From Patescibacteria group bacterium (GTDB lineage: Bacteria > Patescibacteriota > Patescibacteriia > SG8-24 > DYFX01), in NCBI GenBank assembly GCA_030583805.1, contig CP129476.1, positions 1,094,657 to 1,158,656 on the forward strand: a DNA stretch of 64,000 bases, in the 5' to 3' direction. The translations under genes and the position numbers were made by a program. Below, one piece after another: positions 2,195 through 63,705 of the stretch. The notes under the pieces are model-generated. The model was not told the DNA's origin, did no database searches, and saw only the letters and a list, made by a program, of their open reading frames with translations. How positions within the stretch are numbered: position 1 is the stretch's first letter; the number at the start of each line of letters is the position of its first letter.

Positions 2195-2294
2195 GGAGTG
2201 GCGGGTAAGGATTCGTTTCTGCAGTACATCACCCCGCTTCGACCTGTTGAAGTGGACAAGCCTGTGGATAAGAAAAAAGGGGCCCCAAGCCCCT

Positions 2295-2720
2295 TTATCC
2301 GGTGGTGCCGAAGCCGCCACGCGTTTTGTCGGTCAGCGCCGGGCCCTCGTCCCAAACGGCGCGGTCGATGCGGACAAAGCCGGCCTGGCAAACGCGGTCG
2401 CCTTTTTTGATTTCGACCGGTGCGTCGGTGAAGTTCATGACGCGGAGCTTGAGTTCATCCTCGGGACCGCAGTAATCCTGATCGATGATGCCGATGCCGT
2501 GCGGCAGCTGGACGCCTTTTTTCGGCGTCGAGGAACGTGAAGCGACAAGCAACATGTAGCCTTCGGGAATGCCGAAAACGAGGCCGGTCGGAAGGTCGGC
2601 CATGCTTTTCGGTTCGAGCACGATATCCTCGACACAAACAATGTCGAAACAGACGGCGCCCGGCGTCTTGTATTCGGGCAACGCGGCGTCGGGCCGCGTG
2701 CGGGTGATGCGGACGTGCAT
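2295..2720 (-). CDS. dut: dUTP diphosphatase (dUTPase).
   Basis: Conserved dUTPase motifs: GLVFGIPEGY, SRSS, GIIDQDYCG and a C-terminal GGFGTTG. ATGA overlap with the upstream kinase gene. Confidence 0.9.
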   Translation of the reverse strand: MHVRITRTRPDAALPEYKTPGAVCFDIVCVEDIVLEPKSMADLPTGLVFGIPEGYMLLVASRSSTPKKGVQLPHGIGIIDQDYCGPEDELKLRVMNFTDAPVEIKKGDRVCQAGFVRIDRAVWDEGPALTDKTRGGFGTTG

Positions 2721-3325: not shown

Positions 3326-3837
3326 GCTTTGGAGACGTAATTTTCGAGAGGTGCGGTGAAGGCGTGCGCCAGGCGCTCGGTCCATTCGCGCGACGGCTGG
3401 TAGGAATCGAGCGTGATGCCCGCTTCCGGCAGCGCGGCGACGACGGCAGGGGAGCGATACTCGGCGCCGGCCACGATGCGTTTCACGCCGGCACCGGCCA
3501 ACGCCTTGAAACAATGGTAGCAAGGCGAGTGGGTCGTATAGAGCGTCGAGCCGACGGTGCCGTTACCGCCCATGACGGCGGCTTGAAGCACGCAGTTCTC
3601 TTCGGCGTGGACCGTGCGGATGCAGTGGTTCTCTTCCATGAGATGGCCGGCCGGGCCGTCGCAATGCGGCATGCCGGGCGGCGCGCCATTGTAGCCCGTC
3701 GCCACGATGCGGCGGTCTTTCACCAGAACCGCGCCGACCTGGAGGCGGTTGCAGGTGCCGCGCGTCGCCACGATCTTGGCGATGCCCATGAAATAGTCGT
3801 CCCAGGACGGGCGTTGGAGAGAGGTCATAGTGTTCAA
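3322..3837 (-). CDS. dCMP deaminase (deoxycytidylate deaminase).
   Basis: Zinc-binding motifs HAEENCVLQAA and PCYHCFKAL of the CDA/dCMP deaminase fold; 171 aa. Confidence 0.85.
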   Translation of the reverse strand: MNTMTSLQRPSWDDYFMGIAKIVATRGTCNRLQVGAVLVKDRRIVATGYNGAPPGMPHCDGPAGHLMEENHCIRTVHAEENCVLQAAVMGGNGTVGSTLYTTHSPCYHCFKALAGAGVKRIVAGAEYRSPAVVAALPEAGITLDSYQPSREWTERLAHAFTAPLENYVSKA

Positions 3838-7176: not shown

Positions 7177-7509
7177 GTGACGCACCGGTTGGACTGGCCG
7201 TATCCAAGCGTGGCCGAACGCTGGCTCATGCGCTATCTCCGCCTGCTCGGTTTCTGCGTCGCCGGACACGAAACGTTCGAGGCTGCGGCGCGCGCCGGTG
7301 CGGCGGAGGATGATCTGGAAGCGGCGGAGGCATTTTCCCTCCTGCGGCGGCGCGGCTGGGTTGCCCATGCGAACGGCGCGTTCTTTCTTACACGGGACGG
7401 CCAGGCGGCCGCGGAAGCCATCGCGATGTTGTCGAGACAATTGCGCGATCCGGCCGTTCCCATACCCGAGAGATTCCTCCCGAGGCTCGCTTGGACCGAC
7501 GACGACTAA
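7177..7509 (+). CDS. Hypothetical winged-helix-like protein, about 110 aa, with a GTG start.
   Basis: SD aggagg 5 nt upstream of GTG 7177. Motif LLRRRGWVAHANGAFFLTRDGQAAAEAI (wH-like). This is the internal start of track ORF 7123-7509. Confidence 0.4.
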   Translation: MTHRLDWPYPSVAERWLMRYLRLLGFCVAGHETFEAAARAGAAEDDLEAAEAFSLLRRRGWVAHANGAFFLTRDGQAAAEAIAMLSRQLRDPAVPIPERFLPRLAWTDDD

Positions 7510-7592
7510 GACGGTCGTCTTTTTTCTTCTTGACGATGTCGTCGCGCACGGGCAGGCTGAGGCATGAGTCCCAGACTCAGAAGGAGGCCAGC

Positions 7593-8702
7593 ATGGATCC
7601 TCTCGGCTCGAACAAGAACCCGACAACCAGAGAAAGCGCACGCGCGTCGGTCGAGAAATACGCCCGCATCATCCTGACAAGGGTGACGTCCGACGGCGCC
7701 GGTTTCTACGACATGGAAGACTTTCGCGGTTTCTGCGGCGTCGGAGAAAAGGATCGCCTGCGCGGCGACTTCGTGCTCCAAGCGGCCAAGAAGCTCGTTC
7801 AGGAGGGCGAGCTTCAAAGCGTGAAGGGCGGCATGTTCAAGCGGGTCGAGAAGGAGGACAACGAGTCTTCCGAAGAAGGCGCGCCTGCCGCGGTACCCGA
7901 GCAGCTTGATCAGGACGCGACCGCGTCCGTCGACGAGCTCGTGGAGATCGAGGTGCTCCAAGGCGCGAAGGCGAAGGAGGAGGTGGTCGAAGAGGACGCG
8001 GACGAGGGTGCCGAGGAGAAAGCCGAGGAACCGACCGCTGTCCCGGCCAAGCGGAAGATGTCGCCTCGCGGCAGCTTCCGCGCCTGGGCGCTCTCCTACA
8101 TGCAGCCCGACGTGATCTTTCGGACGAAGGATCTGCTGCTGCTCGCTGTTGAAGCCGAGGTGGTCGTTACGACCGCGGCGGGCCAGCTGCAGCTCAACCG
8201 CTTGGTGAAGGAAGGTCTCTTGAACCGCAAGCGGCGCGGATACGTCAGCCTCGCCGTCGCCGAGAAGGCATCGGCGCCAGACGTCTCCGTACAAGAGGAG
8301 GCAACGGTCTCGGATGCGGCGAGGGCGGAGGTTGTACACGTCGTTCCCGCGCAAGAGCCGGAGCCTCCGTCGAACGAGGAGCCGAAGCCAGCGGTTCGCA
8401 AGAAAGCGAAGGGGAAGCCGAAGGCCGCGAAGCGGCGGAAAGCTCCCGCGCCGAAAACGGATCCCAACGCGCTCGATGCGTTCATCAAGTTGTTCCAGAT
8501 GCAGCGTGACGAGCTCGCGAAACACCTCAGGGCGACGGTTCCCGTCCGCAAGACGCTAGCCGCCGCGGTACGATCGGCCCAAGCGGCGCTCGACACGCTC
8601 GATGACAGCCGAGCCGACGCCCAGGCGAAGATCGAGGGACTCGATCGCTCGATGAAAACGCTGAAGGAACTCTCGCGCAGCCTGCGCCCGCAGGCTCGCT
8701 GA
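7593..8702 (+). CDS. Hypothetical protein, 369 aa. It has two winged-helix-like repeats, an acidic low-complexity segment, a Lys/Pro-rich basic segment and a C-terminal coiled coil.
   Basis: SD aaggagg before ATG 7593. Features were read from the translation. Confidence 0.6.
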   Translation: MDPLGSNKNPTTRESARASVEKYARIILTRVTSDGAGFYDMEDFRGFCGVGEKDRLRGDFVLQAAKKLVQEGELQSVKGGMFKRVEKEDNESSEEGAPAAVPEQLDQDATASVDELVEIEVLQGAKAKEEVVEEDADEGAEEKAEEPTAVPAKRKMSPRGSFRAWALSYMQPDVIFRTKDLLLLAVEAEVVVTTAAGQLQLNRLVKEGLLNRKRRGYVSLAVAEKASAPDVSVQEEATVSDAARAEVVHVVPAQEPEPPSNEEPKPAVRKKAKGKPKAAKRRKAPAPKTDPNALDAFIKLFQMQRDELAKHLRATVPVRKTLAAAVRSAQAALDTLDDSRADAQAKIEGLDRSMKTLKELSRSLRPQAR

Positions 8703-16378: not shown

Positions 16379-17222
16379 GGTATTCGGCGATGAGGATGCG
16401 TTCGTCGCGGTGCAGGTCTTTCAGGATCGTGACGGACGCGCCGGGCATGGCTGATGCCGCCAATTGCGCCAGCTCCTTGAACTGCCCCGGCTCCGCTTCG
16501 AGCGCGAGAAGTTTCGGCGGGCGTTTCCAACGAGCCACGTGTTTGAACAATGCGCGGTAATGGTCGAGACCGTCTTTGCCGGAGACGAGCGCGAGCTTCG
16601 GCTCGTGCATACGGACTTCCGGCTGCGCGTGTTTCCAGGTCGCGATCGGCAGGTACGGAAGATTGGCGACGATCGCCACCGGGCCTCGAGGTTCCTGGAA
16701 CCGGTTTTTCAAAATATCGATCTTGGCGAAACGGACGCGGCGGCCGAGCTTCAGCCTTCGCGCGTTCGTCTTCGCTACGGCCAACGCCTTCGCCGAGACG
16801 TCGTAGAGGACGGCTTTGTTGTTCGCGCGTTCGGCGGCCAGGGTCAGACCGATCGCGCCGGAGCCGGTGCCGATGTCGAGGAACGTTTCGCCGTCTTTCG
16901 TCCGGGCAAGCACGGCTTCCACGAGCAGCTCCGTTTCCGGACGGGGAATCAGGACGTCTTTGGTAACCGTAAACACCCTTCCGTAGAAGCCGCGTTCGCC
17001 GATGATCTGGGCGAAGGGCACGTGCCGGGCGCGCGCCGCGACGCCCGTGGCGTAGGCTTTCGCCGTGGCGGGCGACACGGGCGCCTCCGGGTGCGCCAAG
17101 AGCCATGCGAGATCCTTCTTCAAGAGACGCGCCAAAAGCGACTCCGCTTCGAGAAGGGGTTCGGGAATGCGGGCGCGTTTCAAGCGGCTCGCGGCGGCAG
17201 AGGTGAGATCGCGTACGTGCAT
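16365..17222 (-). CDS. prmC: Release-factor glutamine N5-methyltransferase PrmC/HemK.
   Basis: SAM-MTase motifs LDIGTGSGAIGL and NLPY (an NPPY variant). First ATG at 17222; the track start at 17240 is TTG. Confidence 0.85.
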   Translation of the reverse strand: MHVRDLTSAAASRLKRARIPEPLLEAESLLARLLKKDLAWLLAHPEAPVSPATAKAYATGVAARARHVPFAQIIGERGFYGRVFTVTKDVLIPRPETELLVEAVLARTKDGETFLDIGTGSGAIGLTLAAERANNKAVLYDVSAKALAVAKTNARRLKLGRRVRFAKIDILKNRFQEPRGPVAIVANLPYLPIATWKHAQPEVRMHEPKLALVSGKDGLDHYRALFKHVARWKRPPKLLALEAEPGQFKELAQLAASAMPGASVTILKDLHRDERILIAEYQNAP

Positions 17223-17238
17223 GCGGGCACTGTACGAC

Positions 17239-17268
17239 AAAAAGAAAAGCTCCGCGAGAGACGGAGCG
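17239..17268 (-). terminator. Terminator-like hairpin (gctccg-cgagaga-cggagc + T-run on the minus strand) between the upstream hypothetical gene and prmC.
   Basis: Read from the sequence. Its position inside an operon suggests partial termination or attenuation. Confidence 0.35.
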
Positions 17269-17276
17269 TGCGTCGA

Positions 17277-17675
17277 TCAGACGGCCGGCTTCTCCATGAA
17301 GTCGGCCTCGGTCAGCTCGCCGCTGGCGAGAGCGTGCAGGAAGCGGGCGAGGCCGCCGAGGCACTCCTCGGGCTTCGCGAAGTGCTGCGCCCAGCTGTTG
17401 AGGAGGCCGGAGACGTCGAGGGCGTGGCCATGGATCTCCGGGTTGGCTTCGAAGAGCTCCGTGATCTCCGACCAGAGGAACGTTCCGACGTAGATGGGGC
17501 CGGGAATGCCGTAGCGGCTGATGATCTCGCGGACGCGTTCGCGTCCGGCGAAGCCGTCGGGACTCGGTTCCTTCCAGTGCGCCGCATGGGCGTGATGGCT
17601 GGCCCAGCCGAGCCACTTGATGGCGAAGAGCAGCTGGCCGATGCGGATCTGAAGCGGCGGAAAGACTTTCTTCAC
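17277..17675 (-). CDS. Hypothetical protein, 132 aa, His-rich (HHAHAAHW...HGH); possibly DinB-like.
   Basis: GTG start at 17675 with SD ggagga at spacing 4. The long N-terminal extension in the track overlaps the neighbouring gene and is rejected. Confidence 0.45.
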   Translation of the reverse strand: MKKVFPPLQIRIGQLLFAIKWLGWASHHAHAAHWKEPSPDGFAGRERVREIISRYGIPGPIYVGTFLWSEITELFEANPEIHGHALDVSGLLNSWAQHFAKPEECLGGLARFLHALASGELTEADFMEKPAV

Positions 17676-17721
17676 GTGTTCCTCCAGGTTGGACGGTGCC
17701 GTGGTATCACGCGGCGCGCGT

Positions 17722-18399
17722 TCAGTCAACCCTCGTGGCGCGGCGTGCGGCTTCAAGTTCGTCCGGCGTGCCCACGGGCATCCAGAATTTCGACTCGATG
17801 AGCTGAACAGGATTTTTATCCAGGTGCTTCGCCAGCGTTTGCGGCAAGCCGAACTCGCCGTTCGGCAGCGCCGCCGGTTCGAGATCGAAGAAGCGCGCGT
17901 CGAGCAGGCAGGCGCCGACGTACACTTCATGCGCTTCGAGACCGACGACGTCCTTGTTCGGAACGATCTTCTTCAAGAAGCCGTCCGCGCTTTCGAGGTG
18001 GCTGTACGGGTTCGGCGCCGGGACGCGGTGCGCGAGCATGGCGAAGGGCTTGGCCGCGGCGAGACGCTCCAAATCTTCCCGCGCGTAGAGGTCGTCGCCG
18101 TTCAGCGCCAAAAACGGTTCGGCGTCCAAAAACGGCTTGGCGCGCAGTAGGGCGTCGTAGGTGCCGCGCAGGTCGGTTTGGTCCACGCAGCGGACGCGGG
18201 CGGTGTTTTCAAAACGCATGCAGATCGCCTGGCTCAGGTAGCCGACGACGATTACGATTTCCGAAACGGTTTCGGGCAGCGCCTCGATCGTATGCTGAAG
18301 AATCGGCTTGCCGCCGATCTCGATCATCGGTTTCGGAATCGTATCCGTAAGGGGACGCAAACGAGTGCCGAGACCCGCTGCAAAAATGACAGCTTTCAT
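17722..18399 (-). CDS. NDP-sugar pyrophosphorylase (nucleotidyltransferase family).
   Basis: N-terminal signature [30 protein letters not shown] overlap with the prfA stop. Confidence 0.8.
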
Positions 18400-19484
18400 T
18401 CTTCGTCGGAATCACCACCGGCACCAAAGGTGCCCGCCCGGTCGGCCTCGTGGAGCGCGCGCATGATCTCGTCCAAGCCTCCGGCCAGGATCGCCGGCAT
18501 GCCGTGCCAGGACTGCTTGATGCGGTGGTCGGTCACGCGGTCTTGCGGGAAGTTGTAGGTGCGGATTTTTTCGGAACGCTCGCCGGTGCCGATCTGGCCT
18601 TGCCGCAAATCGGTGCGGGCCTTCCGGCGCTTTTCTTCTTCAAGAGCGAACAGGCGCGCGCGAAGCACGGCCATCGCTTTCTCGCGGTTCTGGATCTGGC
18701 TGCGTTCGTCCTGGCAGGCGACGATCATGCCGGTCGGGAGATAGGTGATGCGCACGGCCGAGTAGGTCGTCTGCACGCCCTGGCCGCCGTTGCCGCCGGA
18801 GAGGAACGTGTCGATACGGAGATCCTTCGGATCGATCTTGATGTCGATCTCCTCCGCTTCCGGCAGCGCGGCGACGGTGACGGTCGACGTGTGCACGCGC
18901 CCGGCCTTTTCGGTTTCGGGAACGCGCTGGACGCGGTGCACGCCGGACTCGTATTTCATTTGGCGGTAGACGTTCTTGCCTTGCACGCTGAAGACGGCTT
19001 CCTTCATGCCGCCCAGGTCGTTCAAGCTTTGCGAAATGGCCGCGACTTTCCAGCCCTGCTTTTCGGCGTAGCGGACGTACATGCGGAAGAGTTCCGCCGC
19101 GAAGAGCGCCGCTTCGTCGCCGCCGACGCCGGCGCGGATTTCGATGATCGTGTTTTTCTTGTCGAGCGGGTCGGGTTCGACCAGCGCGTCTTCGAGAGCC
19201 AAGCGCGCGGTGCCAAGCTCGCCGACGATACGCGCCGCTTCCGCTTCGGCCATCGCTTTCAGTTCCGGATCGGTTTCCGTCTTGAGCATCGCCGCCGTAT
19301 CGGCGGACTCCTTTTCCAGCGCCTCGTAACGTTCGGCGATGTCGAGCACTTCGCGCAGCTCGCTGTACTCCTGATTCAGCGCCCGCATTTTTTGGTTGTC
19401 AGAAATCACCTCCGGTTGCGACAGGAGGGTTTCGATCTCGCGGAAGCGCGCGCGCTTTTTTTCGATTTCGACGGGGACGTTCAT
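18396..19484 (-). CDS. prfA: Peptide chain release factor 1.
   Basis: GGQ motif ([12 protein letters not shown]) and RF1-type PxT region; 363 aa starting from [10 protein letters not shown] (ATG 19484). The track N-terminal extension is spurious. Confidence 0.95.
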
Positions 19485-19540
19485 AGGAAGCAGTATAACG
19501 CAGATAACCAAAACCCCGCTTCGGGCGGGGTTCGGCGAAG

Positions 19541-19825
19541 CTACTTCGAGGCTTTGGCAGCCTTCTGAGCGACGCGCTTGGCGGTACGGGCCTTCTTGCC
19601 GGTGGCCTTGGTGTCCGAGGACGGCTTCTTCGAGGTGCGCTCCTGGAACTTCTCGACGCGGCGGGACGTGTCGACCAGCTTCTGCTTGCCCGTGTAGAAC
19701 GGGTGGCAGGCGGAGCACAATTCGACAGAGAGCTCCTTGACGGTGGCTCCGGTCGTGAAGGCGTTGCCGCAGGCGCAAACGACCTTGGCTTCCGGGAAAT
19801 ATGTCGGGTGGGTGTCGGCTTTCAT
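19541..19825 (-). CDS. rpmE: 50S ribosomal protein L31.
   Basis: [28 protein letters not shown]...[12 protein letters not shown]; Cys4 zinc ribbon; ATG at 19825. Confidence 0.9.
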
Positions 19826-19939
19826 AGATTGACTACGGCGAGGACTATAGCAGGGACGCGCAGAGTTGGCAAGCCCTGGCGCTTTGGGGTTTGCGGGAAG
19901 GGGAGAAAGCCCGTAGTCTGGCTTAAGAAGGAGGCTTCC

Positions 19940-20305
19940 ATGCCGCTCCGCCTCGTCATACTGCTCGTTCTTCTTTCGGGCTGCGCTCCGCCGCCCGCTT
20001 CCGAACCTTCGCCGCCTTCCGAATCGCTCGGCGCCTGCCTCGCATCCGCCGGCGCCCGCCTCTACGGCGCGTCGTGGTGCCCGCAGTGCCACAGGCAGCT
20101 GCAGATGTTCGATCCGGAATCCGCGGACGTCCCGTATACGGATTGCGCGCCGGAAGGCACGGTCGGCTTCGTCTCCGCCTGCGAGCAAGGCGGCGTCCCA
20201 TACGGCACGACGCTCCCAGTCTGGATCTTCGCCGACGGTACGCGTCTCTACGGCGTTCGCGATCCCTTCGAGATCGCCGCGACGGCCGGTTGCCTCTCCC
20301 CATAA
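19940..20305 (+). CDS. Thioredoxin-fold lipoprotein (CxxC).
   Basis: Lipobox LLSGC; WCPQC active-site motif; SD aagaaggagg before ATG 19940. Confidence 0.65.
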
Positions 20306-20331
20306 AAGGTGGAGCGGCTTTTCTTTTCGAA

Positions 20332-20365
20332 TAGAAAACGCCCGCCATCAGCGTGATGACGGGCG
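20332..20365 (-). terminator. Intrinsic terminator for the RNA ligase gene; the hairpin overlaps the stop codon.
   Basis: cgcccgccatca-gcg-tgatgacgggcg, with a T-run on the minus strand. Confidence 0.5.
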
Positions 20366-21460
20366 AGCGGCGCGATCGAAATCGCGGACGAGCTTGTACC
20401 AGTTCGGTTCCTTGTGATCGAAGAGCATGAACACGGCTCCGTGGAGTTCCTTCCGCACGTTGTATCGCAGCCATGACGCGAAGGTCTTGCGATCCTCGGT
20501 GAACGGGCCGCAGAACAACGCGGACTCCGCCTCGACGCAGAGCGCCCGCGCCTTGGCGTCGATCTCCGCGACGATGCGGTCCGCTTCGATGCGGGCCTCT
20601 TCGTTCGCATCGGCGACGAGCTTCAGGTACGCCGGCTTGCCGCCCGCGACCAGCGTGTCGAGGATGTTGGGCGCGGAGATGCCCCACGTGCTCCGGCTCC
20701 GGGCGCAGTAGGCGTGCCCCTTCACCTTCACGCGCAGGCCGTTCGCGAACAGGAGGACGAATCCTTCCTGATCCGCCGGCAGCGCCTTGGCCGCCGCGTA
20801 CGCCTCCTCAAACGAGGAGAACGCATACGTCTTCGGCAGCCGCGCGCCGATCGCCTTCGCGACCTCGACGACCGTGTTCCATGGAAGCTCTTCGCCGGTG
20901 ACCCGGTGACGGAGTCCGAGGAGCACGAGTCCTTCGTAGTCGTAGGTGATGACTGAGAGCGCGACGTCTCCCGCCGTCTCGTGCTGCTTCGGGTACACGA
21001 TCTCGAAGATCGGGGTGTAGCCCTCGGGCAGCGCTTCGAGCCGGAGCTTGCGCAGCATTTCGGTACCGCGCAGCGCCTGCGGGGTGTCGAAGCTGCCGCG
21101 CGTCGCGATCCAGGCTTCACCGTGCTCGTCGCGGTACATCATGCCGAACGTGCCGTCGACCTTCTCGAACGCCGTGAACGGCAGGTCGGGAAGATCTTCG
21201 AACTTCGTCGACGTGGGATGGTTCCCGACGTTCGAGAACTTGTCGAAGCCGCGTGCCGCCACCGACCAGTCGCGCGTGTCGACGATCAGGCCGCGGCAGA
21301 CGCTCGTGACGTCGTCCCACGCGGCGCGCTTCTGGCAGTCCTGGTTGTAGTTCAGGAGGACGAAGGGGCCGCGGCGCTTCACGATGACGAGGTGGCCGTA
21401 GGCTTCTTGGAAGAGCGGTTCGTTCTGGAGAACGCGGATGAGCTGTTCGAGTCCGGTCAT
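20348..21460 (-). CDS. ATP-dependent RNA ligase (Rnl2/REL-like covalent nucleotidyltransferase), 370 aa.
   Basis: NTase motif I (FEKVDGTFG), motif IV (QEGFVLL) and motif V (LRVKVKG). ATG at 21460 with a ggagg SD. Codon usage looks atypical: AAG only, very high GC3. Confidence 0.7.
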   Translation of the reverse strand: MTGLEQLIRVLQNEPLFQEAYGHLVIVKRRGPFVLLNYNQDCQKRAAWDDVTSVCRGLIVDTRDWSVAARGFDKFSNVGNHPTSTKFEDLPDLPFTAFEKVDGTFGMMYRDEHGEAWIATRGSFDTPQALRGTEMLRKLRLEALPEGYTPIFEIVYPKQHETAGDVALSVITYDYEGLVLLGLRHRVTGEELPWNTVVEVAKAIGARLPKTYAFSSFEEAYAAAKALPADQEGFVLLFANGLRVKVKGHAYCARSRSTWGISAPNILDTLVAGGKPAYLKLVADANEEARIEADRIVAEIDAKARALCVEAESALFCGPFTEDRKTFASWLRYNVRKELHGAVFMLFDHKEPNWYKLVRDFDRAARPSSR

Positions 21461-21572
21461 GGTGCCTCCGTTCGGGCGGTTTTGGGATGGGGCGCGCGAG
21501 AAACGTCTCTCGGGAGCGCAAAGAGCGACCCGCCAAACTACCCAATTTTCGGCCAAACGTCAAGATTCCCGC

Positions 21573-21601
21573 TTGACAGGCGGCGGGAACCCCTTTATAG
21601 T
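21573..21601 (+). promoter_or_regulatory. Sigma70-like promoter for rpsB (TTGACA, 17 nt, TATAGT), followed by a leader of about 100 nt.
   Basis: Consensus hexamers with 17-nt spacing, read directly from the sequence. Confidence 0.55.
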
Positions 21602-21704
21602 GCGCCCATTATTAACCTCACATTCCCGACAACACTCCTGGGCGCTTCCATCCTCTGGATACGGAAGTCCCGGCCGGGAAGGTGATAAAAGGAGTTTTCT
21701 CTCT

Positions 21705-22469
21705 ATGTACGAGATCCCCGATCTTCTTGAGTTTCTCAAGACGGGCGCCCACTTCGGCCACCAGGTTTCGAAGTGGCACCCGAAAATGAAGCCGTTCCTC
21801 TTCGGTTCCCGGAACGGCATCCATATCATCGACCTGGAACAGACCGTCTTGAAGTTGAAGGAAGCGCTCGACGCCGCGCGCGACATGACCGCCAAGGGCG
21901 GCACGATCGTGTTCCTCGGCACCAAGCGCCAGGCCGCGCCGATCGTCGAGAAGTACGCCAAGGCCTGCGGCGCGCCGTACATCACGACCCGCTGGCTCGG
22001 CGGCACCTTCACGAACTTCCCGGAACTCTCGAAGCTCATCAAGAAGCTGAACGAGTACCGCACGAAGCGCGACACCGGCGGCTTCGACAAGTACACCAAG
22101 AAGGAGCGCGTCGTCATCGATCGCGAGATCGAAGACATGGAGCGCAAGGTCGGCGGCATCGCCACCCTCACCAAGCTCCCGGAAGCGCTGTTCGTCATCG
22201 ACGCCAAGCATGAAAAGACGGCGGTCGAGGAATCGCGCGCGAAGAAGGTTCCGATCTTCTCCCTGATCGACTCCAACATCAACCCGGAAGACATTACCTA
22301 CGGTATTCCGGCCAACGACGACGCCGTGAAGTCCATTGAACTCTTCACGCGCCTCTTCTCCGAAGCCGTGGCCGAAGGCCGCAAGCTCCGCGAGAAGGAC
22401 ATGGCCGTGAAGAAGGCTGAAGCCGTCAAAGCGGAATCGGCCGAACCGGCCCGCGTCATCACCGCGTAA
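21705..22469 (+). CDS. rpsB: 30S ribosomal protein S2.
   Basis: MYEIPDLLEFLKTGAHFGHQVSKWHPKMKPF...; SD aaaaggag; ATG at 21705. Confidence 0.95.
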   Translation: MYEIPDLLEFLKTGAHFGHQVSKWHPKMKPFLFGSRNGIHIIDLEQTVLKLKEALDAARDMTAKGGTIVFLGTKRQAAPIVEKYAKACGAPYITTRWLGGTFTNFPELSKLIKKLNEYRTKRDTGGFDKYTKKERVVIDREIEDMERKVGGIATLTKLPEALFVIDAKHEKTAVEESRAKKVPIFSLIDSNINPEDITYGIPANDDAVKSIELFTRLFSEAVAEGRKLREKDMAVKKAEAVKAESAEPARVITA

Positions 22470-52574: not shown

Positions 52575-52613
52575 AAAAACCCAGGATGTCATGCCTGGGA
52601 TTTGCCGTTTTTT
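52575..52613. terminator. Bidirectional terminator (aaaaa cccagg-atgtcatg-cctggg a-tttgccgtttttt) between the helicase and the DHH gene.
   Basis: Hairpin with A and T flanks. Confidence 0.6.
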
Positions 52614-53689
52614 CCGTTCCGGTCGCTGCCGCCGCGTCCGCGCATCTGCTGGATGCGGCACTTGTATTGCGCGCTGAGGAACTTGATGAGCAGCTCGGCC
52701 GTATCGGGGAAGGGTACGTGCGGTTCGGCAAGCTGGTAGCGCGCGCCGCCGGATCCGTGCTTGGCGCCGCCCTTGCCTTTGCCGAAGATCGCTTCGATGA
52801 ACTTCGTGAGCGGCAACTCTTTGCTGTAGCTGCGGATCGAAGCCCGTACCCAGCCGCCGGTGACGCCCCAGATGACGGTCGTCGCCGCGCCTTCGTTGCG
52901 GCGCTGGCGGTTGGCGATGATCGAAAGCAGGTCGCCGTCCTCTTCCTTCATGAGACTTGTCGCGTGGGCGATGCGCACACCGTCGACCATCTCGAGAGTG
53001 GAGAGCACTTCGCGCTCGAGATCCGCGAACTGAGGCGGCAGGCGAAAGTTGAAGCTGGCTTCGAGCTTTTCCTGGTCGCCTTCGCTCATGAGCCAGGCGA
53101 ACGATTGGATGTCCTCGTTGCGCGTGATGCTGAGCGTTAGTTGCTCGGTATCGGAGTGGATGCCGACGGCCGCCAGCGTACGCAGCTGTTTGTCCAGCGG
53201 GACTTCGAGCGCTCGCGCCAAGAGGGTGCAAAGCGTCGTAGCCGAACCGCAGGACTCGATGAGATCGAAACCGTCCTTGATCTTCGTCGTCTGATCGAGG
53301 TGGTGATCGACGCGGAAGATGAAGCGTGCAGGATCGATCCGGACTTCGGAGCCGAACCGGGCGTCTTCGAACCGCGACGAATCGACGAGGCCGAGCGGCC
53401 CTTGTTCGGGCAGCTCGGAGATCGGCCGCATCGTTTTCATCAGCTCCCACTCGTTGTAGATGAGCTGGTTTTGCGGATGACCGAAGCTGCCGGCGTAATA
53501 GATCTCGCAGGCGATGCCCCGGGATTCGAAAATCGCTTTGGAAACGTGGGCCGAGGCGATGCCGTCGGGGTCGACCTGCGCGACGATGATGCTGATGCTC
53601 TCGCCGGTTTTCCATGATTCGAGCAGTTGCATGAACTGGCGCACCAGATCAGCTTTCAGAAAACCGCTGTCGTTGGAATGAGCTGGCAT
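52589..53689 (-). CDS. DHH-family phosphoesterase (NrnA-like; DHH + DHHA1) with a basic C-terminal tail.
   Basis: Motifs AQVDPDG, VDHH, and a GGGH-like DHHA1 motif (GGAKHGSGG). ATG at 53689 with SD ggaggaag. Confidence 0.75.
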   Translation of the reverse strand: MPAHSNDSGFLKADLVRQFMQLLESWKTGESISIIVAQVDPDGIASAHVSKAIFESRGIACEIYYAGSFGHPQNQLIYNEWELMKTMRPISELPEQGPLGLVDSSRFEDARFGSEVRIDPARFIFRVDHHLDQTTKIKDGFDLIESCGSATTLCTLLARALEVPLDKQLRTLAAVGIHSDTEQLTLSITRNEDIQSFAWLMSEGDQEKLEASFNFRLPPQFADLEREVLSTLEMVDGVRIAHATSLMKEEDGDLLSIIANRQRRNEGAATTVIWGVTGGWVRASIRSYSKELPLTKFIEAIFGKGKGGAKHGSGGARYQLAEPHVPFPDTAELLIKFLSAQYKCRIQQMRGRGGSDRNGKNGKSQA

Positions 53690-53765
53690 GCTTCCTCCGT
53701 CCGCGAGCATACTCCTTTTGCGAGGTGCGTCAATGTGCTACATTCGTGCCGGAGGAAATCCATCT

Positions 53766-54302
53766 ATGGTTCAGACGACGCCGAACAAGGAGTACGAAGA
53801 AAAGTTTCTCGTGCGGCAGGATCTCTTGCCGAACGAGCTTCTTTTGAACCTCTCGGACATCCGGCAGGGCTTCCTCTCGCTCGAGCCCGTCGTGCGCATC
53901 CGCGAGCAGGACGGCGTCTACATCGCCGAGTTCAAGGGCGGAAACGACGACGAAATTCTCATCGGTCACCCCTCTTCGAAAGACGGGGCGCAGCTTCTCG
54001 GGCATTGCGCGGCCGTGGCCGGCATCGTCACGAAAGGGCGCGCCCGCATCGCGGCCGGATTCGACCGGCGGGTATGGGAACTCGACGTCTTCCGCGGCAA
54101 GAACGCGCCGCTCATGGTCGTCGAAATCGAGAAGCCTACGAAGCGCTATCCGCTCAAACGGTACAAGAAGCTCTGGCCCGAGTGGGTCGGCAAGAACGTC
54201 ACGAAGGACAAGCGTTTCAAGAACAAGGCGCTCGCCGTCCGGCCGTTCGCGAGCTGGCCGAAGGCGGAACGCAAAGAAATCCTCAAATTAATGGGCCTTT
54301 AG
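53766..54302 (+). CDS. CYTH-domain protein (triphosphate tunnel metalloenzyme-like).
   Basis: N-terminal EYEEKFLV (the ExExK motif), with the later acidic strand MVVEIE; 178 aa. Confidence 0.6.
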   Translation: MVQTTPNKEYEEKFLVRQDLLPNELLLNLSDIRQGFLSLEPVVRIREQDGVYIAEFKGGNDDEILIGHPSSKDGAQLLGHCAAVAGIVTKGRARIAAGFDRRVWELDVFRGKNAPLMVVEIEKPTKRYPLKRYKKLWPEWVGKNVTKDKRFKNKALAVRPFASWPKAERKEILKLMGL

Positions 54303-54439
54303 CCCATTTTTTCTTTGTGGATAACCCGGGGTTGTGCCTGGGGGCAGAGGTTCTATACTAGGGGCACCTAACGGACACCGCGTATGTTGAACCGGACGCA
54401 ATTCATTGCACGGAACGCATCCGATTTCCGATTGGTATC

Positions 54440-54468
54440 AAAAAACTCTTCGTCGTGAAGAGTTTTTT
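54440..54468 (+). promoter_or_regulatory. Perfect palindromic hairpin (aaaaaactcttc-gtcgt-gaagagtttttt) in the 5' region of the large atypical gene; terminator or attenuator-like.
   Basis: 12-nt perfect arms with A and T flanks. A TATACT -10-like element lies 85 nt upstream at 54354. Confidence 0.45.
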
Positions 54469-54522
54469 GGTCGCTCCTTGATCGGAGCTCTTTCCAAAGC
54501 CCACAGACCAGAGAGGTATGTC

Positions 54523-56787
54523 ATGTCGAAGGAAAAGACCCCGCGTGAAGTCGTTGCGGCGGCCGCTTCGGCGGTCTGCGGCAAGCCCCGCGTGATCACG
54601 CACGAGGAGCGCAACCAGATCAACGAACGCTGCCGGACGCAGGGCATCGGTCGTCGCAGCGTCGGCGAGTATCTCGCCACGCTCGGCTACGCGATGCCGG
54701 ATCCGGCGCGTCAGCAGCCCACGCTGCTCAAGCTGATCGAAGCGGCCTTCACCAAGGCGGCGGCGATCAAGGATCCCGAGGAGCTGCGCAAGCACAAGGG
54801 TGCCGTCGTTCAGGCGATCGCCAAGGAGGCCGAGAACCTCGGCATTCCGGCGCCGTCCTGGAACGTCGTTCGCGAGATCGCTCGCAACTTCGCCTGGCCG
54901 GCCTGGCCGAACCTGGGCGTGCAGCGAAGCGAAGAGGATGAGAAGTTGAAGCGTACGTTGGACTCGATGCGCAAGTTCGCGAAGGTCTACAACGACTTCA
55001 AGACGTGTCCGCTGATGCACGACCTGCTCCGGGTGCTCTACCCCGACAGCGTTCAGAAGGATCAGCGCGCCTTGCTCAAGCGCAAGATCGCGGCGTACCG
55101 CGCATTCCGCGCGGCGCATCCGGAGCACAACCTCCCGGAGCTCATCCTGCGCAAGGGCAAGGACGGCAGCATGATCGGGATCCCGGAGGGCGTGCGCGAG
55201 CAGCTCGCCGAGTTCCAGATCGACGTGCAGACGGTGCAGAAGGCCAAGGGCCTGATCATCACGTCCGCGCAGTTCGGCGCCACGCTGAACATCGACGCCT
55301 TCGACGCGTTCAAGCGCTATGCCAAGCACCTCGGCTACGTCCTGGTCGTCATGCCGATCAAGTACGGCGCGATCAAGACGGTGCACCAGAAGGAGCAGGA
55401 CAAGCGCGTGCTCATGTCGACCTTCGACGAGCGCCTCAAGGGGTACATGCTCTTCGAGGATCAGAGCGTCGCGGGCGACATGCTCACGCTGAACACGCTA
55501 CGGCTGCGTCCGACGCTCACCACCTTCCTCACGGATCCTGTCTGTGAGCGAGGCGGCGACGCGTCGCAGATCTTCGCGGCGCCAAAGCTCGAGCTCGAGT
55601 ACCGGCCCCGTTTGCGGCACGACTACCCGAAGGCGATCATGACGACGGGCGCGGTGACGCACCCGAACTACAACGTCGACAACCTCGGGCAGCAGGACCG
55701 CACGGGCGAGATTGCGCGCGCGGAGCATACCTACTCGGCGATCATCGTCGAGTTCACGGGCAAGAAGACGTTCCACTTCCGCCAGCTCTTGGCCAACACC
55801 AAGGGCGAGTTCTACGACATCGATCCGCTTCGCGGCGGCGCCGTCTTCGTGACTCCCAAGTCCGTGACGCACGCTCCTGACGCGGTCGAGGCGGTGGTGC
55901 TGGGCGACTGGCACGTCGGCAAGACGCACCCGGACGTGCGCAAGATCACGTTCGAGGACATGCTGCCGACGCTCAAGCCGAAGCACATCGTCCTCCACGA
56001 CCTGTTCGACGGCGACAGCATCAGCCACTGGGAAGAGAAGCAGGGGTCGCGGCGCGCCTACAAGGGCTCGCACTTCGCCAACGCGCTCGAGCCCGAGCTG
56101 AAGGCTGTCGGCAATGAGCTGGCCTGGATGGGGCGGTGCGTGCAGGGAGCCAAGCTGCACGTCGTGGCCTCGAACCACAACGAGTTCCTTCGCAAGTGGC
56201 TCGAAGAGGGGCGGTGGAAGCACGATGACGTGAACATCGTCATCGCGGCCGAGCTGTTCCTGGCGCTGCAGAAGGACTTGCAGCGACGTGATCCCGAGGC
56301 GCACGAGTTGGCGCCGATGGACCCCGTCAACTGGTGGCTCGATCAGCAGAAGTTGCCGAACGTGGTGACGCACAGCCGGCGCAGCACGCTGATCCTGCCG
56401 CAAGGCGAGAAGGCCAAGAAGATCATGCTCTCGCTGCATGGCGACATCGGCCCGCGCGGTCAGAAGGCCGGCGCGCTGAACGCGTTCCGCAAGTGGAACC
56501 ATTGGCTCATCGTCGGCCACGATCACTCCGGAGCGATCCGGGGACCGATCTGGCGCGTGGGCACGTCGTCGCACCTCACGGATCATTACGTGAGCGGTCC
56601 GTCCACCAACTGGACGCACACGCACGCCGTCGTGTACGCCAACGGTCAGCGTCAGCTGATCAACATCATGAACGGCACCTACCACGGCCGCCGGAAGCAC
56701 CGCTCGAAGAGCGCGGGGCTCCAACCGGAAGGCGCGCGGAAGCCGCTCAAGAAGAAGGCACGTACGACGCGCAAGCGCGCTGCGTAA
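54523..56787 (+). CDS. Large hypothetical protein, 755 aa: an N-terminal domain of about 440 aa with unknown function, a C-terminal calcineurin-like metallophosphoesterase domain, and a polybasic tail.
   Basis: MPE motifs in order: GDWHVG, HDLFDGD, SNHNE, LHGD, PRG, GHDH. C-terminal tail GRRKHRSKS...KPLKKKARTTRKRAA. Codon usage is strikingly atypical (AAG/GAG almost exclusively, very high GC3). ATG at 54523. Confidence 0.65.
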   Translation: MSKEKTPREVVAAAASAVCGKPRVITHEERNQINERCRTQGIGRRSVGEYLATLGYAMPDPARQQPTLLKLIEAAFTKAAAIKDPEELRKHKGAVVQAIAKEAENLGIPAPSWNVVREIARNFAWPAWPNLGVQRSEEDEKLKRTLDSMRKFAKVYNDFKTCPLMHDLLRVLYPDSVQKDQRALLKRKIAAYRAFRAAHPEHNLPELILRKGKDGSMIGIPEGVREQLAEFQIDVQTVQKAKGLIITSAQFGATLNIDAFDAFKRYAKHLGYVLVVMPIKYGAIKTVHQKEQDKRVLMSTFDERLKGYMLFEDQSVAGDMLTLNTLRLRPTLTTFLTDPVCERGGDASQIFAAPKLELEYRPRLRHDYPKAIMTTGAVTHPNYNVDNLGQQDRTGEIARAEHTYSAIIVEFTGKKTFHFRQLLANTKGEFYDIDPLRGGAVFVTPKSVTHAPDAVEAVVLGDWHVGKTHPDVRKITFEDMLPTLKPKHIVLHDLFDGDSISHWEEKQGSRRAYKGSHFANALEPELKAVGNELAWMGRCVQGAKLHVVASNHNEFLRKWLEEGRWKHDDVNIVIAAELFLALQKDLQRRDPEAHELAPMDPVNWWLDQQKLPNVVTHSRRSTLILPQGEKAKKIMLSLHGDIGPRGQKAGALNAFRKWNHWLIVGHDHSGAIRGPIWRVGTSSHLTDHYVSGPSTNWTHTHAVVYANGQRQLINIMNGTYHGRRKHRSKSAGLQPEGARKPLKKKARTTRKRAA

Positions 56788-56822
56788 CAAAAACCCCCGA
56801 TGCTTGTCGGGGTTTTCTTTTT
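56788..56822 (+). terminator. Intrinsic terminator after the large gene (ccccga-tgcttg-tcgggg + TTTTCTTTTT).
   Basis: Visible in the sequence. Confidence 0.65.
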
Positions 56823-56829
56823 GCGCGAC

Positions 56830-57609
56830 TTACCGCTGCGGAGGGGTTTGCGCTGGCGCGGAGCCCGTGGCGGGCTGGAAGCCGGAGGAACCGGGGAGCA
56901 CGATCGTGATATCGAAGCCGAGGTCTTCTTTAATGACGCTGGCCAAGGTCGGGTTCTCGATATTGAAAACATCGCCGCGGCCGCGCGGTTCGAGGAGGAA
57001 GCCTCCGAAGACGAAGGTTTGCGCCGGTTGCGTATCGGCGCTCAGATTGGCGAGCAGAGCCTTTTCCGTGGCCATCACCTTCGCTTCCAGCGGCACGACG
57101 CCGAACACCGCCAAGCTGCGGCTAATGCCGACCTGGGCGTCAAAGGTGAAGAGTGTCTGTTTCTTTTCGAGCAGCGCCGCCTTCACGTCGCCGTTCGCAT
57201 AGGCCAATTCGGCGGCGGGGGAGAATTCAAGAGTCATCCGCGTCCAACGGCCGTCCGGAATCCGTTCGCTCAAGACTTTTTGGACGGCGCCCGGCTGCAA
57301 CATGACGCGTTGCGCGCCGGTAAAGAAGACGGCCGTCTTTCCGTCGTCGGCGCTCACGGTGGCTTTGAGCAGCGTCAGCTCGGCGCGCGCGGCGTTGTCC
57401 GCGATCGTCGTCGGAGGAGCCAAATAGAGGTTCAACGCGGCATGGCGCTCCTTTTCCACCACTTCGGGCGTCGGTGTCGTCGGCGCCGTGGGGGCGGGTT
57501 TTCCGAAGGGCGGCAGGCCATAGCGGGGCGCGATCAAGAGAAACCAAAGGAGGGCGACGAGCGCCAAGGCCGCCAGGGACAGAAAAAGCGCGATCTTCTT
57601 GCGTTGCAT
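56830..57609 (-). CDS. Hypothetical membrane-anchored / secreted protein, 259 aa.
   Basis: N-terminal TM/signal segment (IALFLSLAALALVALLWFLLIA). A TATAAT -10 sits 8 nt upstream of the ATG on the minus strand, so the transcript is probably leaderless. Confidence 0.5.
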   Translation of the reverse strand: MQRKKIALFLSLAALALVALLWFLLIAPRYGLPPFGKPAPTAPTTPTPEVVEKERHAALNLYLAPPTTIADNAARAELTLLKATVSADDGKTAVFFTGAQRVMLQPGAVQKVLSERIPDGRWTRMTLEFSPAAELAYANGDVKAALLEKKQTLFTFDAQVGISRSLAVFGVVPLEAKVMATEKALLANLSADTQPAQTFVFGGFLLEPRGRGDVFNIENPTLASVIKEDLGFDITIVLPGSSGFQPATGSAPAQTPPQR

Positions 57610-60028: not shown

Positions 60029-60360
60029 GGCGCCTCCAGGTTGAGAAGTTCCTGCTCCCGTGGTATCAAGAAGCCACCTATACGTCAATCTATGGAAAAC
60101 CTCACATTCGATCTTGATGAGCTGTACGGAGCCGTAAAAGAGCGCGCGTTGTCCGAGGGCGCCTATACGCCGGAAGAGTGGAGCGACGTCATCGACATGA
60201 CGCTTCAAGATCGCGAAGAATTCGGCGAGGTGCACGACGACGAGGAGCTTTCGGCCGTGAAGGAGCAGCTCAAGGCGCGCTTCGAGGAGTTCAAAAGCGA
60301 AATCCCGGAAGCCTAGCCATTGACGTTTCCGTGAAAAAAGCGTACTCTGCGTACGCTCGG

Positions 60361-60436
60361 GTCGGTAGCTCAGTCGGTAGAGCAACAGCCTTTTAAGCTG
60401 ATGGTCCCGGGTTCGATCCCCGGCCGACCCACCAGA
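60361..60436 (+). tRNA. tRNA-Lys (anticodon UUU), with an encoded CCA.
   Basis: Cloverleaf: acceptor gggtcgg/ccgaccc; D-arm gctc...gagc; anticodon loop cuUUUaa; T-arm ccggg-ttcgatc-cccgg; discriminator A plus CCA. Confidence 0.85.
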
Positions 60437-62133: not shown

Positions 62134-63705
62134 ATGCCGAAGCTCGTAAAAGCGACGCTTGTCATGAGCGACCATCACCTCGGCGAGGGCAAGCCCAAGC
62201 TCGAGGATTTTCCGGCCGAAAACGAAAAAGCCTATCTCGAGATGCTCAAGGCGCATCTTGAGCTGATCGGTCCGGACGTGTCGTACTGCCACGTCATCGG
62301 CGGCGACTGGCTCGACTACCATGTGGTGGAGTTCGAAGGGCGCTACGGCGTCTTTCCCACCGAGGAAGCGGCGCTCGCCAAGACGGAAGCCATCATGCAA
62401 GCCCACGCGTCGTACTTTGCGGGGCTGCGCAGCTTGGCGGAAGCGTTTCCGCAGATGTTTTTCGAGATCGTTCCCGGAAACCACGACCTCGACCTGAAAT
62501 GGCCGAGCGTGCAGGAAGTGATCCGCGCTGCATTGGTGCCGCCGGAAGAGGGTCGGCGCGTCGCGTTTCCGAACGAAGTGCGGATCGCGGAGACGGTCTT
62601 GTTCTGCCACGGCGACCAGTTCGATCCGTTCTCGGCGAATCCGCCGGAGCACGACACGATCAAAGAAGACGTGATGATCAGCCGCAAGGTCATGCTCCTC
62701 ATGCTGCTGCTCTCGCTCGTGTTGGCCGGAGCACTGGCCGGGTTCACGTTCTCGCTCCTGCCGTATACCCTCGCGGGCGTCGGTGTCGGCGTGATCGTCT
62801 CCTTCGTGGTCCTGTTCCTGATGTTCCGTTGGATCGCCGGACACCTGGCGTTCCGATGGGGCCGCACGAAGACGGTCTTGAACGTGCCGATCGCTTCGCA
62901 CATGAACGCCGGTCTCGGCACGCGGCTGAAAAAGTGGATCTTCCACGGCATCGGCCGCCGCGTTGATCATGGCGACGAGTGGATCCTCGGCGTGGCGCGC
63001 AAATGGTACGTCTTGCCGATCCTCTTGCCGATGGTCGCGCTCGAAACCCTCGCGCTCAAGTTCTTTTACCTCTTCCGCCGGCCTCGCGAGAAGTTCAATC
63101 CTCGCCTGATGCTCGATCTCATCGCTTCCACGACGCATGCCGACCGCATCGAAAAGGGTCTCGCGGCGTTTTTGGAGGAGCGTCCGGGGGTGTGCCACCT
63201 GATCGCCGGCCACACGCACGACGGAAAGATGGAGACCGTCGAAATCGACGGCCGCACGGTCATCTACTACAACTCCGGCACGGCGATTCGTCAGATGCGC
63301 ACGTACAAGCCCGAGGTGCGCGCGGTGACCGCTTGGCCCAAGCTCGAAACGTTCTTTCGCCGCGTGCTGTACTACTGGATCCACGCGCCGTTTGGCGCCG
63401 CAGCCTCGACGATGGCCTATCTCGCGGTTCCGGTCGCGCTGTTCTTGCTCCCGGAGATGCCCTTCCTCACGGCGCTGCGCTGGCCGGTCGCGTTCGGAGC
63501 GGTCTTCCTGCTGCTCTGGTGGCAATTCGCCGCCGAGTACCGGGACGGCCACTTCTTCCGCTTCACGCCGCCCGAAGTGCTCGAATACGACGACGGTTCG
63601 GTGCGCGTCCGCATCCTGCAGTACGATCACGATGCCGGGCGCTTCCAGCTCGTCACCGGCGAGGAGGCGACGTGGGATCACTACGTCGAAGGTTCCGTCA
63701 ACTGA
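62134..63705 (+). CDS. Membrane-embedded calcineurin-like metallophosphoesterase (the catalytic domain is split by a TM block).
   Basis: Motifs SDHHLG, GGDWLD, GNHD, CHGDQF, then TM helices, then GHTHDG. SD gaggag. Confidence 0.7.
   Translation: MPKLVKATLVMSDHHLGEGKPKLEDFPAENEKAYLEMLKAHLELIGPDVSYCHVIGGDWLDYHVVEFEGRYGVFPTEEAALAKTEAIMQAHASYFAGLRSLAEAFPQMFFEIVPGNHDLDLKWPSVQEVIRAALVPPEEGRRVAFPNEVRIAETVLFCHGDQFDPFSANPPEHDTIKEDVMISRKVMLLMLLLSLVLAGALAGFTFSLLPYTLAGVGVGVIVSFVVLFLMFRWIAGHLAFRWGRTKTVLNVPIASHMNAGLGTRLKKWIFHGIGRRVDHGDEWILGVARKWYVLPILLPMVALETLALKFFYLFRRPREKFNPRLMLDLIASTTHADRIEKGLAAFLEERPGVCHLIAGHTHDGKMETVEIDGRTVIYYNSGTAIRQMRTYKPEVRAVTAWPKLETFFRRVLYYWIHAPFGAAASTMAYLAVPVALFLLPEMPFLTALRWPVAFGAVFLLLWWQFAAEYRDGHFFRFTPPEVLEYDDGSVRVRILQYDHDAGRFQLVTGEEATWDHYVEGSVN

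Follow-up and report, generated by a model that had tools for sequence, protein, structure and literature searches.

Why does a bacterial chromosome keep, between housekeeping genes, a relative of the protein that phage T5 uses against the chromosome of its own host? The question is raised by a gene on a stretch of 64,000 nucleotides (contig CP129476.1 of assembly GCA_030583805.1, positions 1,094,657 to 1,158,656) from a Patescibacteria group bacterium; the whole of this stretch is referred to as the window. The original prediction, made from the letters of the window, regarded this gene as foreign because of its composition and suggested an anti-phage effector as one hypothesis. The results presented here favour another reading, to which a probability of about 0.58 is attached, namely that the gene encodes a domesticated, tightly regulated chromosomal DNase of the phage T5 A1 family.

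A1 of phage T5 is a predicted metallophosphatase that is essential and, alone, toxic in E. coli; it is reported to be ‘both essential and sufficient’ for digestion of the E. coli chromosome and is described as predominantly Demerecviridae-associated (bioRxiv 10.64898/2026.04.02.716235). In older work on T5, A1 was found to associate with A2 and with membranes and to be needed for second-step DNA transfer. It is also known to bind A2 and RNA polymerase, all these functions being known for T5 only.

Relationship to phage T5 A1

It is nearly certain that the window protein belongs to the A1 family. A PHROGs profile search returned phrog_1745 (‘DNA transfer protein’) with an E-value of 3.1e-93, residues 235-719 being aligned to positions 80-538 of the 542 profile positions. 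In a BLASTP comparison with the Tequintavirus A1 of phage Lindwurm, residues 238-720 were collinear with residues 92-554 of 556 (26% identity, E = 4e-31), and it is this collinearity which identifies the window protein as a homologue of phage T5 A1. Identity to T5 A1 is 24-26% over residues 238-720, and both proteins have the same two-domain core, a degenerate metallophosphoesterase (MPE) followed by an intact one, with the same invariant metal ligands. By analogy, the A1-like protein probably shares the chemistry behind the degradation of host DNA by T5.

When 50,697 phage records were searched by tblastn, 1,127 matched, with annotations such as A1, A1-like or DNA transfer protein. These include T5-like phages of Salmonella, Escherichia, Klebsiella and Vibrio, phage XacN1, and phages of Caulobacter, Brevundimonas, Flavobacterium and Cellulophaga. 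An exhaustive phmmer search retrieved 1,791 clusters (clustered at 50% identity) at E <= 1e-3. Therefore, the A1 family is much wider than its Demerecviridae-centred description in the preprint. General family databases were less informative: a Pfam search gave no family at E <= 1, PF00149 (Metallophos) included, NCBIfam gave no family, and a PDB profile search with the A1-like protein gave no match. The profile phrog_221 (‘metallo-phosphoesterase’) matches the A1-like protein with an E-value of 3e-6, and membership of the MPE superfamily rests on motifs and fold.

The window gene differs from T5 A1 in several respects. It is chromosomal and lies in a conserved housekeeping neighbourhood, not in the first-step-transfer region of a phage. 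The pre-early phage context, beside A2 and dmp, is absent here, a difference that is contextual and does not define homology. A tblastn search of the window with A2, Dmp and two adjacent T5-like open reading frames (ORFs) gave matches at E > 1 only, and the protein has neither an A2 nor a Dmp partner. Moreover, it is longer by about 240 residues at the N-terminus and carries a polybasic tail, its gene has a promoter of its own with a candidate DnaA box and a structured leader, and it falls in a separate clade of the family tree.

The A1-like proteins of the Xanthomonas phage XacN1, of phiCbK-like Caulobacter phages, of Cellulophaga, Flavobacterium and T4-like metagenomic phages, and of the contigs L018 and L019 belong to the same family. 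In phages, the A1-like genes sit among replication genes (ribonucleotide reductase (RNR) with intein, HNH endonucleases, phage RNA polymerase beta, gp44/45, UvsX), whereas the window gene does not. Contig L018 (270 kb) carries the beta subunit of a multisubunit RNA polymerase (phrog_3148, 16561-21156, - strand), and L019 (146 kb) an intein-containing RNR, HNH endonucleases and an NAD-dependent ligase. Both look like large or jumbo phages, and their hosts may be Patescibacteria.

Domain architecture

The original prediction had left about 440 N-terminal residues without a recognisable domain. This part of the protein can be divided into a helical extension specific to the lineage, a helical region specific to the clade and the degenerate MPE of the T5 A1 core (Table 1). 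In the AlphaFold2 (AF2) model, which has a predicted local distance difference test score (pLDDT) of 93, the conserved core (residues ~240-722) is predicted to consist of two tandem MPE folds, the first degenerate and the second with an intact metal site, and the alpha/beta sandwich typical of MPEs is present. The pseudo-MPE has family-invariant residues of its own (G376, Y383, E410, R420 and D432). In the second domain, the metal ligands D462, H464, D493, N551-H552, H639, H666 and H668 are invariant in an alignment of 75 sequences. The full ordered motif set that was first noticed in the C-terminal part is indeed present, with GDWHVG at residue 461, HDLFDGD at 492, SNHNEF at 550, LHGD at 638, PRG at 644 and GHDH at 665. 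Of the two halves, it is the pseudo-MPE that is better conserved within the Patescibacteria clade, e.g., 85% versus 70% against the homologue P0002.

The solved folds nearest to the second MPE are those of the nucleases PolD DP1, SbcD and Mre11. However, the A1-like protein has no detectable sequence similarity to these enzymes, as the PF00149 and PDB profile searches were blank, it lacks a capping domain, and it has no Rad50/SbcC or polymerase partner. In DP1, the phosphodiesterase domain is preceded by an OB fold, whereas the domain before the catalytic MPE is here predicted to be a second MPE fold. Inactivated MPE scaffolds are also found in Vps29 and the B-subunits of eukaryotic DNA polymerases; in contrast to these, the pseudo-MPE precedes an MPE with an intact site in one tandem protein and shows invariant polar residues of its own (E410, R420, D432).

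Outside the core, residues 1-135 have no Pfam or NCBIfam match. A fused A2-like DNA-binding partner was considered for this extension and ruled out, as it has no similarity to T5 A2. The adjoining residues 136-239 were delimited as a clade region based on the alignment and on homologue matches that start near residue 140-150. The C-terminal tail is as basic as originally described, with 14 Lys/Arg and one Asp/Glu among the 32 residues from 723 to 754. The whole protein has a pI of 9.7 and no predicted membrane or hydrophobic segment.

The ORF itself stands as first reported, but its product counts 754 residues instead of 755. A longer in-frame ORF with a TTG start opens at 54406. The ATG was chosen because the ribosome-binding site (RBS) GAGAGG lies 7 nt before it and because it is used in the public annotation (P0001, QY323_06130, 754 aa). 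A 523-aa Metallophos protein encoded elsewhere in the window (62134-63705, + strand), with a weak PF00149 match and a 75% identical counterpart in L001, was considered as a paralogue and rejected.

Residency of the gene

The A1-like gene is very likely a long-term resident of the chromosome and not a recent acquisition. Its nearest homologues are 57-75% identical and lie in the same MetK...UvrD neighbourhood, which is shared by at least nine related Patescibacteria contigs (L001/L002, L003, L004, L009, L010 and L025-L028), with UvrD identities to the window of 51-91%. The gene order in the window is UvrD, DHH, CYTH-like, A1-like, a convergent gene of ~255 aa, MetK and C39 peptidase. The other arrangement reads MetK, A1-like, (sigma/anti-sigma), UvrD, DUF2207 and YceG. 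More distant members (41-51% identity) are found beside GluRS/CysRS, RecA/GlpX, FtsX/M23 or a class-V aminotransferase, in genomes of 37-62% GC. Signs of a recent genomic island, namely an integrase, a junction next to a tRNA gene or direct repeats, were not seen at the locus, and the flanking window genes (UvrD, MetK, CNNM, DUF2207, C39 peptidase) are all cellular housekeeping genes. The original prediction had itself named vertical conservation with the same composition as the observation that would speak against a foreign gene. This conservation is what was found: the same locus occurs in the related contigs, and the codon bias is kept in the four loci tested, so the label ‘foreign’, in the sense of a recent horizontal acquisition, is not supported.

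More distant matches are found in T4-like phages. The deep history of the family would be one of exchange between phages and cells, in either direction, and an ancient exchange of this kind is the probable origin of the window gene.

A scan of the genome collection with a narrower alignment returned 11, 17 and 2 loci, and the census by that route is incomplete. Several of the metagenome-assembled genome records syntenic with the window (L006, L007, L008, L012) are labelled ‘uncultured Gammaproteobacteria bacterium’, others Parcubacteria, Paceibacteria, Moranbacteria or Saccharibacteria; the labels that name Gammaproteobacteria appear to be placeholders or mistakes. The DHH and CYTH-like genes upstream (window 52589-54302 versus L001 6967-8694) are only 35% and 47% identical between the two contigs and thus far more diverged than the flanking UvrD (91%) and MetK (94%), forming a rapidly evolving block with a very conserved gene on either side.

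Codon usage

The codon anomaly that first drew attention to the gene is borne out by the counts. Lysine is encoded by AAG 58 times and by AAA never, and glutamate by GAG 37 times and by GAA eight times. The GC content at third codon positions (GC3) is 0.90, compared to a mean of 0.79 (standard deviation 0.046), and the G/(G+A) ratio at Lys, Glu and Gln codons is 0.93, compared to 0.55 (standard deviation 0.13); both values are the highest among the 53 window genes. A codon chi-square against the other window genes amounts to 139 with 41 degrees of freedom. The effect is genuine, and no other gene of the window deviates as far in this way.

In each of the four orthologous loci that were tested, GC3 once more peaks at the A1-like gene (0.85-0.92 versus 0.66-0.88 in its neighbourhood), and AAG/AAA counts of 54/6, 46/2 and 36/8 were obtained among them. 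Since synonymous sites should be saturated at 57-75% protein identity, the bias would be maintained rather than a relic of import. The same preference for AAG and C-ending codons is seen in the window genes for ribosomal proteins L1 and L25, NusG and enolase, and the codon adaptation index (CAI) calculated against this set places the A1-like gene eighth among the 53. Judging from its codon usage, the gene appears to be well expressed. Among the distant members there is no consistent GC3 excess: it is absent in L013 and L016 and slight in L011.

The only tRNA gene of the window is a tRNA-Lys(UUU) (60359-60434, + strand), while all 58 lysines of the A1-like gene are AAG. A 403-aa ORF (7491-8702, + strand), for which neither Pfam nor NCBIfam gives a match, has the same G-ending preference (AAG/AAA 26/7, GAG/GAA 30/10). 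The ligase at 20348-21556 (- strand; AAG 19, AAA 0) was first called Rnl2-like. It is of the T4 RnlA (Rnl1) type (PF09511, E = 3.5e-16; TIGR02308 below cutoff). The adjoining 244-aa ORF (21560-22294, - strand), without any family match, has the most deviant codon usage of the window (chi-square per codon 1.17).

Promoter, DnaA box and leader hairpin

The A1-like gene forms its own transcription unit, as the terminator of the upstream CYTH-like gene isolates it (Table 1). The TATACT hexamer that had been pointed out as a -10 element upstream of the hairpin lies where it was placed. In an alignment of six upstream regions, both the -35 and the -10 are conserved in all five that contain them, and the promoter falls below the 9/12 stringency of the promoter scan. 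Directly upstream lies a perfect match to the DnaA-box consensus TTATCCACA, of which the 64-kb window holds two, compared to 0.05 expected. This candidate DnaA box is conserved in 5/5 available orthologous promoters and, in L001, L025, L027 and L028, it occurs at the same position as the sole perfect box.

The second perfect box of the window (2263-2271) directly follows the dUTPase terminator, upstream of the likely ThyX ATG (~2193), in a cluster of dNMP-kinase, dUTPase and ThyX whose ORFs, listed by position, run 569-2320, 2295-2720 and 2720-3523, all on the - strand; ThyX is here a tandem, two-domain protein. The ThyX and A1-like genes share the same layout of terminator T-run, DnaA box and TTGTsC hexamer (TTGTCC at ThyX). 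A consensus DnaA box beside the promoter of a gene with a possible part in feeding the deoxynucleotide pool recalls E. coli nrdAB, an example of a nucleotide-supply gene under DnaA control, although the regulated window gene would encode a nuclease and not a reductase.

Orthologues in the sub-clade of L003, L004, L009 and L010 have a different, strongly conserved promoter of the extended -10 type, TTGACGGCACTTCCCCGACTGTTACCAT (TTGACGG...TACCAT). L003, L004 and L009 have the motif CTCTCACAAC in common just before the RBS, and in L004 and L010 a DnaA box with one mismatch is located ~190 nt upstream of the A1-like gene.

The leader between promoter and ATG measures ~165 nt. It contains the perfect palindrome with 12-bp arms described in the original prediction, as part of a hairpin of -17.6 kcal/mol (z = -6.4 versus shuffles). 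An A-tract in the 5' arm pairs with a U-tract in the 3' arm, a shape like that of a terminator or attenuator. The hairpin is conserved in the window, L026, L001, L025 and L027, with sense-strand energies of -16 to -23 kcal/mol, and compensatory changes of base pairs (U-A>C-G, A-U>U-A, A-U>G-C, U-A>A-U) were found across four orthologues. G-U pairs that are valid in the sense RNA only make this strand more stable than the antisense in every orthologue (in L001, -16.4 versus -9.4), which disfavours the idea of a terminator acting in either orientation.

An equivalent hairpin is missing from the short leader of L028 and from the L004-type leaders, which have different structures. A dispersed repeat or repetitive extragenic palindromic (REP) element was ruled out, the hairpin being single-copy in the window, and an Rfam search of hairpin and leader gave no riboswitch or small RNA at the gathering threshold or at E <= 0.1. 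RNAalifold, with five sequences only, suggested an upstream enclosing helix. From the pattern of sequence conservation, the hairpin is a real and selected sense-strand RNA element in this sub-clade, with a putative role in transcription termination, mRNA stabilisation or factor binding. The terminator expected downstream of the ORF is present as well.

Table 1. Coordinates of the A1-like gene, its regulatory elements and the regions of its product in the window
Feature	Position	Strand	Description
Terminator of the upstream CYTH-like gene	54290-54315 (hairpin 54290-54308)	+	AATGGGCC-TTTAG-CCCATT followed by a T-run; -9.4 kcal/mol
Candidate DnaA box, perfect 9-mer	54316-54324	-	TTATCCACA on the - strand, TGTGGATAA on the + strand; ends 7 nt upstream of the -35
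Predicted sigma-70-like promoter	54332-54359	+	-35 TTGTGC (54332-37), 16-nt spacer, -10 TATACT (54354-59)
Leader hairpin	54437-54471	+	15 bp in RNA; core perfect palindrome AAAAAACTCTTC-GTCGT-GAAGAGTTTTTT (54440-54468)
Second small leader hairpin	54473-54488	+	GCTCC-TTGATC-GGAGC, then TCTTTCC; from RNAalifold; one pair kept by CG>GC in two sequences; weak support
RBS	54510-54515	+	GAGAGG; 7 nt 5' of the ATG; conserved in orthologues
A1-like ORF	54523-56787	+	ATG start; 754 aa
Helical N-terminal extension, residues 1-135	54523-54927	+	Closest sub-clade only (P0002-P0007, P0011); all helical, AF2 pLDDT > 90
Helical region, residues 136-239	54928-55239	+	FAKVYND...YRxFR...LPELI motif; common to the Patescibacteria-type clade
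First half of A1 core, residues 240-455	55240-55887	+	Predicted calcineurin-like MPE fold without metal-ligand motifs
Predicted catalytic MPE domain, residues 456-722	55888-56688	+	Full dimetal motif set
Polybasic tail, residues 723-754, and stop codon	56689-56787	+	Syntenic sub-clade only; low pLDDT (57-69)
Bidirectional intrinsic terminator	56795-56812	.	-11.8 kcal/mol; shared with the convergent gene of a 259-aa membrane protein (56830-57609, - strand)

Proposed function and alternative explanations

Metal-dependent hydrolysis of DNA is the likeliest activity of the A1-like protein, since T5 A1 is both needed and enough to degrade the chromosome of its host. Based on this analogy, an active DNase is considered rather probable, and the initial suggestion of a C-terminal metallophosphoesterase with a likely nucleic-acid substrate is judged to be right. 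The C-terminal MPE, with its two-metal site of the nuclease type (DP1/SbcD/Mre11-like), would cut DNA in a metal-dependent manner, and the degenerate N-terminal MPE would be non-catalytic. Transcription would be coupled to DnaA or replication status and gated by the leader hairpin, and the regulated DNase might supply deoxynucleotides or clear DNA.

A DnaA-linked role in deoxynucleotide salvage, taken on its own, is tentative and somewhat doubtful. It fits the second box, associated with ThyX, and the dependence of Patescibacteria on salvage; with their reduced genomes, they are commonly regarded as unable to make nucleotides de novo. In the most specific version, which is unlikely as a whole, a phage weapon against the host chromosome would have been domesticated as a DnaA-box-controlled, attenuator-gated and highly expressed DNase. 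It would convert acquired DNA, from uptake or from a host cell, into deoxynucleotides, and the pseudo-MPE and the extensions would serve targeting or self-protection.

Several observations weigh against the domesticated DNase. On the biochemical side, the family is uncharacterised, and the authors of the T5 study allow that A1 may activate a host nuclease (bioRxiv 10.64898/2026.04.02.716235). A constitutively well-expressed DNase that degrades chromosomes would be toxic to the cell itself, and the window yielded neither an inhibitor nor an immunity partner nor an A2/Dmp homologue. On the side of expression and regulation, the promoter and the transcription start are predictions. The gene also shows an extra preference for G-ending codons (GAG, ACG, GTG, GGG) far beyond that of the ribosomal-protein set; together with its CAI rank, this means that the bias holds only in part as a simple signature of high expression. 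The link from DnaA box to nucleotide supply rests on two sites in one window. Upstream of distant members, seven DnaA boxes were counted in 8.4 kb versus 59 in 200 kb, a ~2.8-fold excess from partly non-independent contigs.

As for residency, the syntenic A1-like proteins form one sub-clade in a neighbour-joining tree that is without bootstrap support. Within that sub-clade, the gene phylogeny does not fully match that of the genomes: the protein of L003 (158-2020) is 74.7% identical to the window protein over the core with a UvrD of only 51% identity, while for L001 the values are 74.5% and 91%. The UvrD, YceG and NTP-transferase of L003 are only 46-51% identical to those of the window, which hints that the gene was exchanged laterally, or an allele replaced, within the clade. 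Finally, the phage-borne proteins P0035 and P0038 (46-50% identity) nest inside the Patescibacteria-type clade; their contigs of 146 kb and 270 kb carry RNR with intein, HNH endonucleases, T4_Y16D and phage multisubunit RNA polymerase beta.

Among the other explanations, a nuclease for repair or replication survives best, and it too is improbable. The protein would then act like SbcD/Mre11 or a DP1-type exonuclease, with the nearby UvrD, and the DnaA box would mark a replication-stress regulon instead of nucleotide supply. DP1, SbcD and Mre11 are the nearest solved folds, the basic tail and the high pI suit DNA binding, and a DnaA box is present. UvrD is nearby in all syntenic genomes, but this proximity may only reflect gene-order ancestry, UvrD being on the other strand or separated by genes in L004-type genomes. 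No Rad50/SbcC-like partner is adjacent, and the sole functionally studied homologue degrades chromosomes wholesale.

More improbable is a horizontally acquired anti-phage or abortive-infection effector, a reading that takes up the anti-phage idea of the original prediction; a nuclease held off by the leader terminator would then destroy DNA upon infection. The terminator-shaped leader could gate a toxic product, the family is of phage origin with close phage-borne relatives, and the similarity of L003 is incongruent. Likewise, the block of DHH, CYTH, A1 and 259-aa genes is 35-75% identical between the window and L001, compared to 91-94% for the flanking UvrD and MetK. However, the position of the gene is stable across genomes in which UvrD is only 50-55% identical, and the codon bias is conserved, not ameliorating; strong codon optimisation fits a rarely used suicide gene poorly. 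No positive evidence for an anti-phage role was obtained: PADLOC-DB v2 gave 0 defence-protein families at E <= 0.1, and the gene stands single, without sensor or partner.

It is also quite unlikely that the protein is no DNase at all. In that case, the C-terminal MPE would act on another phosphoester (nucleotides, cyclic or linear oligonucleotides, RNA ends), or the protein would mainly bind RNA polymerase or DNA. In favour of this stands the pleiotropy of T5 A1, which also modulates transcription and DNA transfer and whose nuclease activity was never shown in vitro. The neighbouring DHH and CYTH genes suggest oligonucleotide or triphosphate metabolism, and the non-catalytic N-terminal MPE is the more conserved half. 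Against this stand the sufficiency of A1 alone for the loss of chromosomal DNA in E. coli and the top structural neighbours, which are nucleases. Lastly, a cryptic or decaying prophage gene or a phage fragment that contaminates the assembly, suggested by a family typical of phages, is effectively refuted by synteny, as the same arrangement occurs in many independent assemblies, the contig measures 1.17 Mb, and the flanking genes are all housekeeping genes, with no other phage genes and no A2/Dmp homologue seen.

Significance

The A1 family itself was already known from phages; new here are a cellular member with new accessory domains, a conserved promoter-proximal DnaA box and a covarying leader hairpin. 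For decades, T5 A1 has stood as a classic riddle, a protein that is both required and enough to erase the host chromosome and that is biochemically uncharacterised. The family is now widened to ~1,800 clusters at 50% identity, including a clade of stably inherited chromosomal genes of Patescibacteria, and the predicted conserved core of a pseudo-MPE and an MPE in tandem changes the picture of the family. The DnaA box and the hairpin are putative regulatory elements that can be tested directly. A cellular homologue which is tolerated by its owner offers a route to the substrate specificity of A1-type enzymes and to how they avoid self DNA. If the reading as a domesticated DNase is true, the window gene would represent a cellular, experimentally separable A1, which could help to explain how self DNA is spared by A1-type nucleases. 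For the Patescibacteria, it is a candidate for the DNA-catabolic step of their nucleotide scavenging.

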